DNA of 64,000 nucleotides, from NCBI GenBank assembly GCA_964106915.2, contig OZ066926.1; one strand, written 5' to 3'. This DNA comes from Podarcis gaigeae. Its lineage: Eukaryota. Shown here piece after piece: positions 43,135-52,026 of this stretch. The stretch's first letter is position 1. Every line of letters begins with the position of its first letter. The notes under the pieces are model-generated. The model ran no database searches and had not been told where the DNA came from. It was given only the letters and a program-made list of their open reading frames with translations. The position numbers were made by a program, and so were the translations under genes.

Positions 43135-43961
43135 ATTGGGTCTTGAAAATTTGAAGGCTATGCTGCGATGGATTAAATTTGCTATTCTGAATATAAATTT
43201 AAAAACCCCATGTCGTGTCGTTTGTTAAGACGGTCAAGTGCTAGGAAGATTGTAAAGGCAGGCTGTAGACCCAACAACGTCTGGTTTGCCTGAACATCAG
43301 TCTTTCTCAGGATGTCTCTCCCCTCCCAACCTGCTTTGAGTCTTCCCACAATCTTTACTGAACATGAGTGGATGAGGTGACCCAATAATTATACTATACA
43401 ATTATACTTATAATTATAATTATACTATACAATAATTATGTCTTCTTAAAACATGAGAGCAAATGTAGCGTAGCGAAATTAGTGATGCAGCTATCCCACT
43501 GATGATAAAGAAGTGTTTTGGAAATGTCAGACATAAAAGAAAAGTGTCAGGGAGGGAGGGAGGGAAGACTTCTTAAAGAGAAGTATTTGCAGGAGCTGGA
43601 GGGTGGAAGACATGTTGGTTGGAAAAAGCACCCCTGCTGGTGCTTATCAGTTACTGAACTACAATTTTAAAATACAGTTTAGGGAAGACTTTTTTTTTAG
43701 ATAAAAGTTTGCTAAATGGGTCTGGGGGTGCTCAACCAAGATAACAAATGAATTTTGGATTAGTTTCATGGTTGCTATCTCTGGTGGTCAAGGAAAGCAG
43801 AAACAGGTGTCCTAAAAGGTGCGTTCATTCTGCAGCACGGATTCTGACACACCAAGTAGGGCCCAGCAATAAAATTACAGTGCAGGTGTGAAAATAGGAG
43901 CAGCGTTCAATGAAGGTGACACAGAAGTGTGAGACTGTTGGGGGAGCAGGACTCCTTTGCC

Positions 43962-44429
43962 CTAGCCTAGCCCCATGGGGTCGTGCAGCAGGCAAGCCAG
44001 GTAGCAGGAAATGGTCCACGCCCTGCCCACTTGGCCTTCCATGTTCTGCGGGTGAACAACACGCAGGAAGCGGTAGCCAAAAGCCTTGTCCGCCAGGCTC
44101 CGCAAGCTCAGCACTTGCCTCTTGGCCGCCTCCTGCTGGGCTGTCAACTCCACAGGCCCTGCCTGCAGGAACGGCGGCAACACAGGCAGTTCTTTGCCAG
44201 TCCCGGCACCGAAGGTCAGGAACCCGCTGGGAGCAGCCAGAGCATAGCCGTGCACCGAATACCGAGCCCTAGGAACCTGAGGGGCATCTCCTCCTCTGCC
44301 TCTTGACCGCCCCTGGACTTCGAACAACAGTTCTGCGCAGTCCAGAGCCACCAGTGGCACGTCATGGTGCCTGAGTGGCTGCTGTGGCTTGAAAGCATCT
44401 ATGTAGCGCTGGCTGCAGGCGACGGGGAT
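43962..44429 (-). CDS. Transposase-derived gene, last exon: degenerate DDE_Tnp_4-like (ISL2EU/Harbinger-type) domain
   Basis: Acceptor ctcctccctccag|ATC (phase 0); 156 codons to TAG. Motifs ALDCAELLFE, ALAAPSGFLTF, LPPFL, LRSLADKAFG and WTISCYLAC line up with IIDCTE, GITPxGxISF, IPPF, RIHVERAI and VCxxLxN of ISL2EU transposases. Confidence 0.8.
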   Translation of the reverse strand: MPVACSQRYIDAFKPQQPLRHHDVPLVALDCAELLFEVQGRSRGRGGDAPQVPRARYSVHGYALAAPSGFLTFGAGTGKELPVLPPFLQAGPVELTAQQEAAKRQVLSLRSLADKAFGYRFLRVVHPQNMEGQVGRAWTISCYLACLLHDPMGLG

Positions 44430-45378
44430 CTGGAGGGAGGAGAAGACATCTGTAAGAGTGGCCGGCTGCATCAGGGCAGTGACCCATCTTGTCCAGCATC
44501 CTGCTCTCACAGTGGCCCACCAGGAGCCTGTGGGAAGCCTGCAAGCAGGATCTGAGCATAACGGTACCCTCTCCCTGCTACCTGATTTCCAGGAACTGGT
44601 ATTCAGAAGCATGACTGCCTCTGACAAAGGCATTTCTAGGTTAAAAACAGGAATGGGGAACCTCAGACTCTGGGACGAATCTGGCCCTCCAAGCTACTCT
44701 TACCTGGCCCTTGGGACTCTCCTCAGGCCACACCCCTCTCCCTAAGCCACACTCCTCACTGGCCCTGCTTTGCTCCTTAACTGTTTTTGCCTGCCTGAAT
44801 TCTTGATCTTTGATGAGACGTCTTCCTTGCCTGGACAGGAGATAGATGGTATGCAGAAAAACTAGCCTGCTGTACAAAGGTAAAGTACATTTGTTCCCCT
44901 GCCCACCCTTAGCACATGGCCCCCAAGAAAGAAATGTGGCCCTCATGCTGCAAAAGATGAATGCAAACATAGGCCAAATTGCTTGATGGCTGGGGGCTCT
45001 CATCTCTGGATTGTGAGTTTCAAGGAATGAGGAGAGGGTCAACAGGAAAGGGTGCAGTAGTTCTGCCTTCTGTTTTGATTTGAGAACTGATGGGGGCAAA
45101 AGAAATTGGAAAGCAAGGATGCACATGCCACAGTCCAAACCCACAGAAAAGTTGTGAAGTCCCTCCTCTGAAACCAATAGGACCAGTTGTGGCTAACATA
45201 CACCACTTAATTTTTATGGGGACTTCACAGCTGGGTTAATTTTCATTGGGATTTGTGCTCTTAAATACCATTTTTACTACTGAATTCAAAAATGTTCTCT
45301 GTTGGGAGGGGCAACAGCCTAAAAATTAAGTGGGGGGGGGGGCGGGATCCAAACCACAGACAACAGAATGTGCTTCTA

Positions 45379-46211
45379 CAGTGGTGCCTCGCAAGACGAA
45401 ATTAATTCGTTCCGCAAGTTTTTTCGTCTTGCGAAGCACGGTTTCCCATAGGAATGCATTGAAAATCAATGCGTTCCTATGGAAACCGCCTTCAGACCAG
45501 GTCCGGGGACAGTCTGTCCCCCGACCTCTTCTGAAGGCTGAGGGGGGGGACAAGGGCTTTTCTTCCCACCCCCAGCATTTTAAAAAACCCCGGGACAGCA
45601 GAGGACTTCTCCGCTGTCCCGTCCGTTTCTCCGCTCTCCCGGGAAGGCAGGCAGGGGGGAGCAAAGACTTTTGCCCCCTGCCTGCCTTCAAAAGCCGTCC
45701 GGGATAGCGGGAAGCGCTTCCCTGCTATCCCGGACCGCTTTTAAAATGCTGGCGGTGGGGAGCAAAGCCTTTCGGCCCCCGCCGGCCATCCAGGACCTCT
45801 TCTGAAGGCCAGCGGGGGGGTGAAAGTCTTTGCTCCCCCCCCCCGCCTGCCTTCAAAAGCCGTCCGTTTCTCCGCTCTCCCAGGAAGGCAGGCAGGGGGG
45901 AGCAAAGACTTTTGCCCCCTGCCTGCCTTCAAAAGCCGTCCGGGATAGCGGGAAGCGCTTCCCTGCTATCCTGGACCGCTTTTAAAATGCTGGCGGTGGG
46001 GAGCAAAGCCTTTCGGCCCCCGCCGGCCTTCCTGGACCTCTTCTGAAGGCCGGAGGGGTGGGGAAGGCTTTGCTCCCCACCGCCAGCATTTAAAAGAGGT
46101 CCCCGGAGATTTCCCTATGGGCTTTCTTCTTGTGAAGCAAGCCCATAGGGAAATTCGTCTTGCGAAGCAACTCGCAAACGGAAAACCCTTTCGTCTTGCG
46201 GGGCACCACTG
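45379..46211. mobile_element. Tigger-like non-autonomous element with internal ~241-bp tandem duplication
   Basis: TA|CAGTGGTGCCTCGCAAGACGAAA ... TTTCGTCTTGCGGGGCACCACTG|TA. The internal unit repeats at 45621 and 45862. Confidence 0.85.
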
Positions 46212-46559
46212 TACAGCACACTTTTCTTCCCTTTCTACACATGGGGCTGGGAGAACAGTGTGAACTGGACTTCTGGACTTCATCCACCGGGGGCAGTGCA
46301 GGACTGTAGCAGAAGAGCCCTTCTCAACCAGCCTTGTGCCCTCCAACTCGCTGGGGCTGATGGGTATTGCACCTCAAAAGCCTCAGAAGAGAAAGTTTGC
46401 GACCATGCACCATTTGAAGGCTCCTTACCACCCACCCTTCAGTCCCCACCCAATTATTCTATGCTCCTTTCACCAACACCATTGCACCTCTCCTTAACTC
46501 TCTGGTGTTGTTTTTCCGGGGTGTGTAGAAAGGAGGAGCTCTTGCCCCGCTTTACTCAC

Positions 46560-47078
46560 TTGTCTCAACCTCTGCTCCATGAGCTCCGTCCAGCTGGCCC
46601 AGTAGCGGGAGGCCGTGGATTCGGAGATGTGGAACCGGAAGGCCAAGTCCTGAAGCAGCAGGCCCAGGCGCAGGCGGACGAGCACCAGGAAGAGCTGGTT
46701 GTCGGGACTGAGGGCGCTGTGGGGGCTGCCTTCCGGGGCCCCCACCTCCCCATGCTTGCCCTCGAGGAGGAAGTCCAGAAAGGCCACCAGGCGGGGGTAC
46801 CTGTCGAAGCCCGTGTAGAACCTCAGCCGCTTGCCGTCGCCCTTGACGCTCTCGAGGGAGAACGCCCCGTGGTGCGCCTGGGCCTCGCGCTGCCCCCTCA
46901 GCTGCCTGCTCAGCGAGAGGACGGTGGCGCCGCTGGCATCCAGCTCCTTGCGCATGCGATGTCCTGCAGACTCCAGCTGCTCCCGCTCCCAGCGTAGGTT
47001 CTGGTTCTCTTCCTCCAGCTGCGAGACGCGCTCTCCGAGGTGGGAAAGGAGAGCCCAGTTCTCGCCGTCCGCGCTCTC
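46560..47078 (-). CDS. Transposase-derived gene, internal exon: coiled coil, FYTG motif and HTH_Tnp_4-like domain
   Basis: cacacag|GAG ... CAA|gtgagt, 519 nt, phase 0-0. Encodes RVSQLEEENQNLRWEREQLE...LRFYTGF...LSPDNQLFLVLVRLRLGLLLQDLAFRFHISESTASRYWASW. Confidence 0.88.
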
Positions 47079-47214
47079 CTGTGTGCGGTGAAGGACAAAA
47101 TGGTGGCGTTGGCATGGCTTTCCCCAAAGTTGCCCCCACCCAACTCTGCTCCCTGCCCACCTAGTCAGCCCGGACACTGAGGTCCAGTTCCAAGGGCCTT
47201 CTGCCACTTCTCTC

Positions 47215-47682
47215 ATGGCAAGAAGTGAAGTTACAGGGAACCAGGCAGAGGCCCTTCTGGGCAGTGGTTCCTGCCCTGTGGAACACTCCTGTCAGATGCC
47301 AAGGAAATAAACAACTACAGTGGTACCTCGGGTTACAGACGCTTCAGGTTACAGACTCTGCTAACCCAGAAATAGTACCTCGGGTTAAGAACTTTGCTTC
47401 AGGATGAGAACAGAAATCGTGTGGCGGCAGCGCAAGGCCCCATTAGATAAAGTGGACCTCAGGTTAAGAACAGTTTCAGGTTAAGAATGGACCTCCAGAA
47501 TGAATTAAGTTCTTAACCCGAGGTACCAGTGTATCTGAGTTTTAGGAGACATCTGAAGGCAGCCCTGCATAAGGACATTTTTATGTTTTTTATTGTGTTT
47601 TTATATTTTACTGGAAGACTCCCAGGGTGGCTGGGACAACCCGGTCAAGATGGGCAGCGTATAAATAATAAAATTATTATTA
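47215..47682 (+). mobile_element. L2-type 3' fragment split by a Tigger-like MITE
   Basis: aaggaaataaacaacTA|MITE|TAtctgagttttaggagacatctg. The contiguous version is seen in other copies (480-540, 48415-48460). Confidence 0.75.
47318..47531. mobile_element. Tigger-like MITE family A, copy 1
   Basis: TA TSD and CAGTGGTACCTCGGGTT TIR. Confidence 0.88.
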
Positions 47683-47700
47683 GTCACTGGTCACCCTCAC

Positions 47701-47945
47701 CTGCAGCTCTCGGTGTTCTTTCTGGTTGGCTTCCACCGCTCCCTGCAGGCTAAGAAGGCGCTCGCTCTGGCGGTGGGCTGTGTCCTGCAACTCCCTCACA
47801 AGCCTCTTCAGGGCATGTCCTCCTTCTGGTATGCAGTATGCGCCGTGGTCATGCAATGCAGCCATGCCCTCGCAACAAGGTGACACGCTGGTGTTTTTCA
47901 CCTGCTCAGCTGCCACAACCAGGTCACCAGGACCAGAAGGAAGGC
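47701..47945 (-). CDS. Transposase-derived gene, upstream exon: DHxxY motif and start of coiled coil
   Basis: tttgtccaatag|GC ... CAG|gtgagg, 245 nt (phase 1 to 0), in frame with the next exon. Encodes LPSGPGDLVVAAEQVKNT...LHDHGAYCIPEGGHALKRLVRELQDTAHRQSERLLSLQGAVEANQKEHRELQ. Confidence 0.7.
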
Positions 47946-48151
47946 CTATTGGACAAAGATTGACTTATTGGTATTTCAACAGCGTGGTTGTTGCTTCAAG
48001 GGTCCTCCTTATTCCTGGCCCTTGGTGCCCTTTCCCCCCCTTCCCAAGAAGCTCTGGGAAATGTAGTGCCCTGAAAGGCTAAGGGCACAGTAACAAATTT
48101 GCTCACCTGGTGTCATCTCTGTCCTCCACCCTCCCCATGCCAAACTGTTTT

Positions 48152-48566
48152 ATCCTAGAAGACCTACAGTGGTTCCCAGTACGTTTCCAAGCACAATTCA
48201 AAGTGTTGGTGCTGATTTTTAAAGCCCTCAACGGCCTTGGCCCAGTAGACCTGAAGGAGCGTCTCCACCCCCATCGTTCAGCCCGGACACTGAAGTCCAG
48301 CTCTGAGGGCCTTCTGGCGGTTCCCTCCCTATGAGAAGTGAGGTTACAGGGAACCAGGCAAAGGACCTTCTTGATAGTAGCGCCCACCCTGTGGAACGTC
48401 CGCCCATCAGATGTCAAGGAAATAAACATCTGACTTTTAGAAGACATCTGAAGGCAGCCCTGTTTAGGGAGGTTTTTAATGTTTGATGTTTTATCATGTT
48501 TTTAATATTCTGTTGGGAGCCGCCTAAAGTGGGTGGGGTATAAATATATTACTTACTTACTTACTT
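48152..48566 (+). mobile_element. L2 LINE 3' fragment with (TTAC)n tail
   Basis: LQWFPVRFQAQFKVLVLIFKALNGLGPVDLKERL. Confidence 0.85.
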
Positions 48567-50779
48567 GAATCTTTTAGCTTCAACACTGGGATTTTTATTG
48601 ACCGAACTGCTTCACTGTGTGGCTGTATTACATTATTATTGCTGGATTTATTTGTGGGGTGTGGGTTTTGGCTTCAGGAACCTATTGAAGAGCTGGGGGC
48701 CAAATAAGAAGTTTAATTACTTGGGCAGGTATATCTTTGGTATCTGGTATCTTGAAGTAGGAGTGATTCAATTTATTAAATATATTTTTATCCCATTCTT
48801 CAGGCAACCCTCAACCCCACCCCACAACAATCCAAACCAATAGTGGCAGGCACTGTGTGTCTAAAGCTGGGACAGACAGCCTCGGGCTCAAGGACCAAAT
48901 GCCCTCTGTATTTGGCCCTTGAGACTCTTCCCCCAAACCAGACCCACTCCTTGGCTCTGCCTCTGCCTGTGAATGGCTGCTTTGAGTCTGCACTTAATGA
49001 TTTCTTGTGGCATGGAAGTTACTCTGCTGCAGTCGTGGAAAACTGGAACCCCAACCTCTGGCTGTTGACTAGAGCTGGTTATCTGCACTGAGGAATCTGC
49101 ACCGGCTGCTAATGTGCTACTGGGCCAGATTGAAGGTGCTGAGTGTATAAAAGCCTTGGGACCACCTTTCCCTATGTATTCCTACCTGTTATTCTGATAT
49201 GTTCTGCAGCAGCGTTGCTAGCTGGTCCCTTGTGCCACATGGAGTTGAGTACAGCAGACTCTATACTATGGAATTTAATCAATTTGTTGATTCACTTTTT
49301 ACTCTACCTTAAAAACCTGTTTATTTTTGCAAAGTTACCCTGCCATGTGAGCAGTTTTACATTCTTCTGATCTTTGCTTTTACCCTTAATTTTATGTACA
49401 CCACTCTGAGAAGATCTCCCCCTTTTCATTTAGTGGTATAGAAATTTATGTACGTATAAATAGATAAGCCTTAGAAAGTCCAAGCTCGCCTCTTTGCCAT
49501 CCCAAAGAAACAAGGGATTCTGTGTTTCCAAGAAGCCCATACACCTCCTCTTGCCAGCAAACCAGTGAGGATCCTCTCTGATTTTACACTGCACAAGCAC
49601 CCTGTGCTCTCCCAGAAATCTCTGCTTCTAGTGTCCAAGAAGGAGATACTTTGCTGCTGTGTCAGCTGTTAGCTAGGTCTGTGCTCCTTCTTCATGCCTC
49701 CATCTCTGGCCCACAGGGGGCAGCACCCACCCACACTGGCTCATGGCATTCCTGTTAGGAGGAGGATTACATTTTGTGGGCCTCTCCAGACTGATGTTCT
49801 ATTGCAAGTTTCATCCGCAACATGTTCTGTGACACAAAAATAGTGGTGGACTTATTCTGCTTTAGCTTGCGATGCTTCCCTGATACTACCACACGACTGT
49901 TTTGTAGAGCAACAAAAGTGGGACAAAATTAAACCGGAACATGTGTGGCATAAAAATTACAGAATATCAACAGGAAGCTGCAGGATATGGGCATCTGATT
50001 GGAAATGGAGGAATGTGACTACAGGATTGAAAGTGGAATCCTGTCTGATCACTGTGATAGCATCATGAACATAGATCATCATGAATGTGCAGTAAGAAGA
50101 ACATCTGGAGGAGTCCCTGTTTCGTAGTACCATGTCTTTCATGTACACAAGAATCACCACAACCCCTCTCCTGATTTGGGGTTAACTTGGAGATTCACCA
50201 TGACCTCACCATGACTTTGTGATGATCTTTCATAAGCAAGCAAGACAAGACCATACAAATTTTTAAAACCTGCATACATCACTGCGACTAACATAACAGA
50301 CATTAAATTTTCACAGCAAATTGTTTCTGCTTCTGCCTCTTATGTGACACACAAGATATCAGAGCAATACAGAAACCTTTTGCTATGTAAATTTAAGATG
50401 ATCTCTGTTTTGTTAGCCGCTGTTACAATATATAGTTTTAGTCAAAAGTGACGAACTGCATCCTTCCAGGATCCAGACTATTTATGGATCATAGCTGTCA
50501 ACTTTTCCTTTTTCTTGTGAGGAATCCTATTCGGAATAAGGGTATTTCTCTTAAAAAAAAGGGAAACGTTGACAGCTATGATATGGGTACATATAAAGAA
50601 AACATTGCTGCAAAAATACTTGGATCCTATTAAAATGTACAAGGAAAAAAGATACAGACGTAATACTCTCTCTCCCCTCCCCTCTCTCTGAGAAGCTATG
50701 AAGCAATAAAGTGCAGATGCATATATGAAGCGTAACAGGGAGGGATTGCTGTCTAAATTTGTGGAGCATCAATACTGAG

Positions 50780-51060
50780 GCGAAGGGGAGCCCTGAGATA
50801 GCCTGAAAGCGGCAGGTTTGGGGATGGCGATGCACCCCTGTTGCTCAGTACCTGGGAGGGACCGCAGCTGAACTCCATCGCGCCGGCTCTCCCAGCCTCG
50901 TTTCCGATCCAAAATGGCCGCCGCAGTGAATCAGCCCTATCTATCTCTACTACCACGAAAGGCGCTGTCTGGTTTTCCCTCAACCAAGATGGCAGCATCA
51001 GACTCGAAAGGAATGAATGAAGCGCGCCAGGAGTTGGGTCCTAGTTGCTGCGTATATAGT
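50780..51060 (-). promoter_or_regulatory. CpG-rich promoter and candidate first exon of the transposase-derived gene
   Basis: Local CpG cluster with two YY1 motifs (aaaatggccgcc at 50911, caagatggc at 50985). Minus strand reads gcgATGGAG...CAG|gtactg (MEFSCGPSQ, 50878-50852). Confidence 0.55.
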
Positions 51061-51182
51061 GGGTTCTCTCATTAACTTTTTTTCCCCTGAGGGAAGAGAG
51101 AATCACAAAAAGTAAACACACACACACAGTTTCGTGGCGCCTTAAAAACTAAACACTTTGATTATGGCATAAACTTCCGTAG

Positions 51183-51528
51183 GTACGTGGGTGGCGCTGT
51201 GGGTTAAACCACAGAGCCTAGGGCTTGCCGATCAGAAGGTTGGCGGTTTGAATCCCCACGACAAGCTCCCGTTGCTCGCTCCCTGCTCCTGCCAACCTAG
51301 CAGTTCGAAAGCACATCAAAGTGCAAGTAGATAAATAGGTACCACTCCGGTGGGAAGGTAAACGGCGTTTCCGTGTCCTATTCTGGTTTGCCAGAAGCGG
51401 CTTAGTCATGCTGGCCACATGACTCGGAAGCTGTACGCCGGCTCCCTTGGCCAATAAAGCGAGATGAGCGCCACAACCCCAGAGTCGGCCACAACTGGAC
51501 CTAATGGTCAGGGGTCCCTTTACCTTTA
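51183..51528 (+). mobile_element. Sauria SINE (full length)
   Basis: ggtggcgctgtgggttaaaccacagagcc...cagttcgaaagcac...ggggtccctttaccttta with an (ACCTTT) tail. Confidence 0.88.
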
Positions 51529-51822
51529 TCCTTGCAGATTTATATGGACACATGGGTGTAAGGAACGGAGGATCTGTAATCACTGGGGTCTGAGGCAAAT
51601 GGAAATATGAGGCAAATGGAAATATGAGGAAGGGTAGAGCATCCACGGCTTTGCATGCAGAAGGTGCCAGCTTCAATCCATGGCATCACCAGGCAAGGCT
51701 GGAAGAGACGCCTGGCTACTGACAGTCAGTGGAGAGAATGGCCTTGTGTTCCTGTAATTACAGATAGTGACGGTTCAATTATAGCTAGGCAGTCTGCAAA
51801 ATAAACCAGCAACTGGAGGATT

Positions 51823-51968
51823 AGAATCATAGAATTGTAGAGTTAGAAGGGACCTCAGGGGTCATCTGGTCCCACCCTCTGCAAAGCAGGAAACTTTTTG
51901 CTCAACATGGGTCTCGAACCCACACGCCTGAGATGAAGTGTCTTAAGCTCTACCGACTGAGCTATCCC
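51823..51968 (-). mobile_element. tRNA-Lys-like SINE with CR1-type 3' tail
   Basis: Minus strand gggatagctcagtcggtagagc...ggttcgagaccc..., ending ctctacaattctatgattct. Partial copies at ~8720, 22440 and 54815. Confidence 0.75.
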
Positions 51969-52026
51969 ACACAAGATTACATGTCATGCGTCTAACAAAA
52001 TGGAGTCATGTAGTTCCTAAAGGCTT

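Follow-up and report, generated by a model that had tools for sequence, protein, structure and literature searches.

The closest described system is the ISL2EU element, whose transposase, according to the sections of two papers drawn on here, combines THAP, HTH and DDE domains (PMC4482050, PMC4122938) under the catalytic signature D..K..D..D..P..R...E (PMC4122938). HARBI1, which the relevant part of PMC9392472 places with NAIF1 and MSANTD1-4 among the Harbinger-derived genes of jawed vertebrates, belongs to a different PHIS group; it depends on a Myb protein encoded separately, and mammals have retained it. ALP1 of Arabidopsis is a catalytically dead PHIS transposase kept by its host; its full-length core carries point substitutions (DGA), and it has, in the portion of PMC4671723 used, a demonstrated role as a PRC2 accessory protein. 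THAP9 derives from a P element and has kept its activity, as given in an excerpt of PMC5753468.

Here we describe a gene of the lacertid lizard Podarcis gaigeae, within an analysed stretch of 64,000 nucleotides (the window), that resembles each of these in part. Positions 43962-44429 of the minus strand form the last coding exon of a spliced gene (Table 1), whose 383-aa product is read from 47865-47701, 47078-46560 and 44429-43962 across phase-0, GT-AG introns and without internal stops, and whose domains run in the order coiled coil, HTH_Tnp_4, degenerate DDE_Tnp_4. The last exon is 98% identical to that of Lacerta agilis LOC117058535, and 368 of 383 residues are identical over the whole protein. 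The order of ISL2EU transposases is the same, namely THAP (in the fish orthologues), coiled coil, FYTGF, HTH_Tnp_4 and a DDE_Tnp_4-like domain, whereas the 383-aa gene has no second Asp and no SD, has Asp for the catalytic Glu, is single copy and has introns. HTH_Tnp_4 is present in the lizard itself, THAP is found in ray, coelacanth and gar and is absent here, and the DDE domain is recognised by HHalign and in the Atlas. Unlike HARBI1, the gene carries its own HTH, lacks part of the fold and gave no match in mammals or birds. The first-pass annotation had offered ALP1 as its analogue, which holds for the class of function and fails for the anatomy, as the 383-aa gene has lost a 40-aa segment of the fold and has its own HTH, in contrast to the point substitutions and separate Myb partner of ALP1. 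Fish orthologues share with THAP9 and other THAP host genes a THAP domain, a coiled coil and a transposase-derived body, but the 383-aa gene is ISL2EU-derived and dead, with THAP lost in tetrapods.

Table 1. Positions of the gene's features in the window
Feature	Position	Strand	Evidence
Last coding exon, 155 aa + stop, degenerate DDE_Tnp_4 (ISL2EU-type)	43962..44429	-	Uninterrupted open frame, AG acceptor, HHalign to intact transposase P0119, Atlas, model pLDDT 87.5
First Asp of ancestral triad (LDC), predicted strand 1	44340..44342	-	Sequence; orthologue counts
11-codon remnant; transposases have 49-53 aa including SD and second Asp (MADRG)	44178..44210	-	Alignment, HHalign
Asp in place of catalytic Glu (RSLADK for RxHVER), predicted helix 109-116	44088..44090	-	Sequence, model
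C-terminal helix and MGL end	43965..44030	-	Conservation higher among orthologues than transposases
3' untranslated region, at least this length, toward RPL18 end	43761..43961	-	Contigs of runs X4, X6 reach 43761
Intron, GT-AG, 2130 nt, contains MITE-like insertion 45377-46213	44430..46559	-	Skipped in spliced contigs
Coding exon, 173 aa, with FYTGF motif, second coiled-coil half and HTH_Tnp_4 (recognition helix SxSTxSR intact)	46560..47078	-	Pfam PF13613 E 5.2e-20
Intron, GT-AG, 622 nt	47079..47700	-	Skipped in contigs of X4, X8
Exon: GDLVxAAE motif upstream of first in-frame Met (47865), HDHxY motif, coiled-coil start	47701..47946	-	tblastn of orthologues, contigs; 55 aa from 47865
Remnant of other reptiles' upstream coding exon (AAPCGPEMEA), stop-interrupted	49683..49790	-	tblastn E 0.14-0.25 to Pogona, Elgaria N-termini; weak

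Transcription, selection and genomic setting

The open frame is transcribed and under purifying selection. In contigs of related lizards position 46560 is joined directly to 44429, record 10 of X4 running through 47947-47700, 47077-46560 and 44429-43761 with contiguous record coordinates, and the last splice joint recurs in X6 and X8 (three of the four runs of the first contig set). In the second contig set X4 and X7, both of the RNA-like runs, have loose ends at 44429 that match the end of the upstream exon, and two other runs continue past 44429 into intron-like sequence; the runs are taken as RNA by guess, and the evidence for transcription is the splice joints, without depth. Among 21 variable sites in the lizard contigs 12 are synonymous and 9 non-synonymous, giving a pN/pS of ~0.26 (p 0.002, with sites counted as independent). 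No motif of the DRG segment, which in intact transposases carries the second Asp, occurs in the three frames of the 2130-nt intron, and this together with the direct splicing rules out an extra exon that restores it.

At the 5′ end, the exon that precedes these in other reptiles is stop-interrupted in this lizard, by a weak tblastn match, so that the protein probably starts at MAALHDH, in agreement with the L. agilis annotation, and the remnant is probably the trace of a lacertid N-terminal truncation. The GDLVxAAE motif (~47900-47940) lies in frame upstream of the first Met, where a non-AUG start or another exon is possible. Two intronic MITE-like elements (45377-46213 and 47316-47533) have TA-CAGTGG ends and inverted arms of 25 nt and 20 nt, the former with GC-rich repeats inside.

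The gene adjoins RPL18 (Pfam Ribosomal_L18) tail-to-tail. A bZIP gene and a sphingosine-kinase-like gene lie to one side of it, and a sulfotransferase is located outside the window. We take these neighbours to be DBP, SPHK2 and SULT2B1, the human order presumably being DBP-SPHK2-RPL18-FAM83E-SPACA4-SULT2B1, without the 383-aa gene. The 3′ ends of RPL18 (+) and of the 383-aa gene (-) lie within ~600 nt of each other (43135-43761) and contigs cover 43200-43674; the transcripts may overlap. The last exon has one genome match among five candidates, and no dispersed copies were found, with one match per search, both counts being lower bounds. An active ISL2EU element would have terminal inverted repeats that begin with GG, and an AT target duplication; of 100 inverted pairs in 43140-52000, none of the 25 longest brackets the gene, and no YqaJ gene lies near it (C25:18.52 Mb), all three YqaJ candidates being on contigs C9 and C135.

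The match on C9 (L014:988-2169; G000:C9:94438434-94439615, +) is a host-like gene whose N-terminal half is of low complexity and whose YqaJ exonuclease domain retains E, D and ExK; it is a candidate domesticated form of the second ISL2EU gene. A CpG-rich stretch lies ~7 kb upstream of it (L017:2800-3450), and fragmented retrovirus-like frames, gag-, pol- and env-like by eye, also lie on its upstream side (L018:3334-5319). On the small contig C135 YqaJ occurs twice (L015, L016) among phage-like frames (RecT-like, HTH regulators), probably as bacterial or phage contamination of the assembly. The genome also holds twelve Harbinger-type DDE_Tnp_4 matches (L004-L013 on C1, C2, C24 and C25), several with open frames of 428-540 aa, which are possible further domesticated Harbinger genes of reptiles or young elements; one of them, L012, we take to be a HARBI1-like gene at a separate locus.

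The gene family and its missing catalytic segment

A profile search that scored 7994 proteins placed at least 85 of the best 100 in the gene family, 84 of them with vertebrate names, from sharks and rays, coelacanth, lungfish, bichir, sturgeons, gar, bowfin, bonytongue, eels, tarpon, herrings, characins, frogs, turtles and squamates. Scanning 1.84 billion representatives with a profile, of which the best 150 of 3246 matches are considered here, added at least 20 family-like rows among the 109 classified, the named ones from the same animal groups, and a search restricted to proteins of 1408-4020 aa returned no family member. Among the matches listed, which are annotated proteins, the family is absent from mammals, birds, crocodilians, tuatara, salamanders, caecilians, cyprinids, catfish, euteleosts and lampreys. 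Judged from these annotations, the lack of any match in mammals, birds, crocodilians, salamanders, caecilians, cyprinids and euteleosts suggests that many lineages can do without the gene. Four sea-turtle models (P0025, P0026, P0061, P0086) seem to contain frameshifts or partial deletions, and a second copy in Leptodactylus (P0129) is degraded, each of which may reflect ongoing loss or errors in GC-rich assembly.

Our set of 71 orthologues consists of the 85 hits minus 15 truncated, frameshifted, redundant or unnamed rows (P0020, P0023-25, P0046, P0054, P0058, P0060, P0061, P0068, P0077, P0078, P0083, P0086, P0094), plus P0111 from the representative scan. A quick tree built from 28 orthologues and 39 transposases unites the orthologues on a single branch (SH-aLRT 100) and recovers every class as monophyletic; ray-finned fish group with reptiles, contrary to the species tree, which is probably a composition artefact, composition bias being flagged in three turtle and three fish rows. 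The next-best matches listed after the family are intact THAP-HTH_Tnp_4-DDE_Tnp_4 transposases of ISL2EU type, the closest named ones from tick and mayfly, and not members of the PIF/Harbinger group with a Myb/SANT partner. By alignment and tree, the gene is an ancient single-copy host gene of one origin, descended from an ISL2EU-type transposase.

The last exon is ~50% identical to sharks (76/151, 81/152) and ~25% to transposases. The HTH is the most conserved region, with 26 of 51 positions at 90% or more and 32-40 of 51 residues identical in the orthologue comparison (33-40 of 51 for animals from sharks through turtles); recognition-helix residues T210, S212 and R213 have frequencies of 0.95-1.0, and the basic residues R271 and R282 are near-invariant. 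The last 22 residues keep 16-19 identities among orthologues (19/22 between lizard and manta ray) against 6/22 with transposases, and the mean top-residue frequency of the C-terminal helix is 0.77 in orthologues versus 0.49 in transposases. Of the 71 orthologues, 11 (ray, coelacanth and nine ray-finned fish) have a THAP domain whose C2CH pattern is intact; THAP is missing from all tetrapod and lungfish models. A decaying transposon copy or pseudogene would account for the lost Pfam DDE_Tnp_4 match, the decayed 5′ exon in this lizard and the frameshifts of some sea-turtle models, but it is refuted by the range of orthologues, the spliced contigs, the pN/pS and the identity to sharks in a single-copy gene with introns, and we give it next to no credence.

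The segment that carries the second Asp was traced by the spacing from the Phe of SGFLTF (44213-44211) to the Pro of LPPFL (44177-44175), which is 11-12 residues in all 18 squamates and 49-53 (median 51) in 39 transposases; the latter were chosen for carrying the motifs, so that 39 of 39 is circular and they serve as a length ruler only. HHalign to the intact transposase P0119 opens a gap of 40 columns (99.94%, E 8.4e-37, a score raised by the HTH that also lies inside the alignment), and Pfam DDE_Tnp_4 does not match the last exon even at E 1. Relative to intact ISL2EU-type transposases, then, ~40 aa including the second Asp are missing by alignment, which agrees with the 40-45 aa that had been proposed from the letters alone. 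Against the ISL2EU signature, the lizard exon keeps the first Asp and the Pro, has Arg for Lys and Asp for Glu, and has lost both middle Asp residues, and no intact D-D-E triad was found in it. The first-pass annotation had also read the Glu-to-Asp change of RIHVER to RSLADK correctly (44090-44088), this residue being Asp in 67 of 71 orthologues, and had rightly described the frame as intact to the C-terminus. The first Asp, kept in the lizard as ALDCAE, is less constant across the family (D in 55, E in 15, Q in 1), the conserved Lys is Arg in 70 of 71, and the His of HVER survives in five, all of them cartilaginous fish.

The ADxG motif is kept in none of the 71 orthologues, which places the loss of catalysis, as read from the alignment, before the split of the jawed vertebrates. 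The dead segment is acid-rich and 29-53 residues long in cartilaginous fish, 40 in coelacanth, 35 in lungfish, 30-31 in frogs, 26 (median) in ray-finned fish, 15-17 in turtles and 11-12 in squamates, and this gradation points to stepwise erosion and not to one inactivating deletion, the 40-aa loss being its end point and distinct from the inactivating event. The single in-frame deletion first proposed thus gives way to a loss of the second Asp that is common to all orthologues and a segment length that varies by lineage. The notion of a pseudo-nuclease kept under selection is upheld by the 71 orthologues without second Asp and by the pN/pS among lizards; the region proves, furthermore, to be one exon of an ancient vertebrate gene in which catalysis was lost gradually.

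Predicted fold and dimer

AlphaFold2 with an orthologue-only alignment models the full L. agilis protein at pLDDT 88.4, with a helix of 105 residues, and the last exon at pLDDT 87.5 and pTM 0.81. The exon model has strands at 24-38 (with the first Asp), 55-65 and 70-75, helices at 97-116 with the Asp that replaces Glu, and a long C-terminal helix, and is without strands 4 and 5 of the RNase H-like fold. The scaffold that was thought to be kept is therefore, as modelled, kept by half, as three strands and the E-helix. Foldseek returned no match at E 0.001 for the whole-protein or the exon model, and the fold-search matches of the whole 383-aa model are coiled coils. The top VIA-align match of the exon model is the ISCth4 transposase (Z 3.7, rmsd 4.8, 97 aligned), with KA1 domains tied at 3.3, integrases and Mu at 2.4-2.9, and none of 48161 structures reaching Z 5. 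In the Atlas the nearest clusters of the last exon are DDE_Tnp_4 at 0.93, with 160-162 of 256 features in common, below the 170 typical of same-family matches. The structure searches fall short of establishing an RNase H fold; homology to DDE transposases rests on sequence, not on fold search. On the C-terminal helix C370, C374 and H377 form a candidate Zn site.

A homodimer model of residues 122-383 of the L. agilis orthologue scores 0.63 against 0.02 for the best control, with runs that agree in at least 46% of contacts and pLDDT of at least 70. In calibration, 21 of 30 solved microbial homo-pairs attained this mark, as did 17 of 29 eukaryotic pairs (animals 7/16; 1/7 of those lacking an older solved relative), whereas 0 of 23 microbial and 0 of 30 eukaryotic monomers did so. 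The modelled interface comprises residues 139-202 in the HTH exon and 261-284 and 348-353 in the last exon, its pairing motifs being FYTGF, LRLGLLLQD and the RFLRV stretch of the last exon, and its positions are more conserved than the whole region (0.82 versus 0.67). Sequence searches yielded no solved relative for either the HTH or the DDE part. The model supports a homodimer, in keeping with the earlier suggestion that the dead nuclease is kept for oligomerisation.

A model for the gene product

We propose, with somewhat more confidence than doubt, that the protein is a nuclease-dead dimer, as modelled, and a predicted DNA-binding regulator of genes or chromatin. DNA binding is suggested by the invariant recognition helix and the conserved basic residues, and the regulatory role by analogy with other domesticated transposases. 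Two copies would pair through FYTGF, LRLGLLLQD and RFLRV, and the 105-residue coiled coil would extend the dimer. The paired HTHs, together with THAP in fish, would read DNA sites, perhaps old ones that resemble ISL2EU ends, while the charge-keeping swaps at the former active site (K to R, E to D, R to K) may hold a network of DNA-phosphate contacts or salt bridges without cutting. Finally, the newly fixed surfaces, the GDLVLAAE motif and the C-terminal helix, would recruit a partner.

The main rival, which we regard as appreciably less probable, is a pure protein scaffold in which the dimer and its long coiled coil bridge other proteins, perhaps within a chromatin complex in the accessory role that ALP1 has in PRC2, and DNA binding is dispensable, at least in tetrapods. 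On the model, the dimer interface suffices to explain why the HTH is so conserved, most of the modelled contacts being located there, and it speaks against DNA reading that tetrapods have lost THAP and that the upstream exon, which bears a basic NLS-like cluster in other reptiles, has decayed in this lizard. A scaffold would also fit the motifs newly fixed without transposase counterpart, such as the C-terminal helix, and the co-purification of ALP1 with PRC2 (PMC4671723, in the portion used). However, T210, S212, R213, R271 and R282 are near-invariant and lie outside the named interface residues.

The first-pass annotation had also suggested a dominant-negative restrictor, a dead dimer that occupies ISL2EU ends or poisons the ISL2EU transposase. 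Transposases have the same dimer surface and HTH, and gene and element are apparently anti-correlated among fish, but the genome offers no target, no further ISL2EU-like transposase having been found in it and the one HTH_Tnp_4 match among 37 candidates being the 383-aa gene itself (both lower bounds), and mammals and birds appear, from annotated proteins, to be without either gene or element. Furthermore, conservation over ~450 million years has been slow and even, unlike an arms race, and in the part of PMC9179366 consulted ISL2EU is reported absent from gar, coelacanth, elephant shark and tetrapods, lineages that retain the gene. Restriction is therefore poorly supported and, to us, improbable. 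We are similarly doubtful of a residual or partnered chemistry, in which the pair of acids that survive would hold one metal or DNA ends, with the cutting done by a YqaJ exonuclease domesticated alongside. Both remaining triad positions are acidic (70/71 and 67/71), the genome has one host-like YqaJ gene with E-D-ExK residues, ISL2EU elements encode a YqaJ protein (PMC4482050, PMC4122938, in the sections used) and HARBI1-NAIF1 is a precedent for such pairs (PMC9392472, likewise), but the strand that bore the second Asp is gone and the YqaJ gene sits on a different contig.

As a regulator or otherwise, this is a conserved and apparently undescribed domesticated ISL2EU-type transposase gene of jawed vertebrates. 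No published description was found in the main texts of the open literature, and a search on six orthologue locus ids returned no publications. The gene could figure in the gene tables of PMC9392472 or of bioRxiv 10.1101/2020.05.07.082677, whose main text does not mention Harbinger, ISL2EU or THAP, and human-centred surveys would miss it, as no mammalian orthologue was found. ISL2EU has been proposed to have entered vertebrates at the base of the teleosts (PMC9179366, in the part consulted); the gene implies, to the contrary, that ISL2EU was present in the gnathostome ancestor. The orthologues form a series in which an enzyme fold is pared stepwise to the parts in use, which points to the dimer and the HTH, and the Xenopus orthologues LOC101732849 and LOC108696677 make the gene testable.
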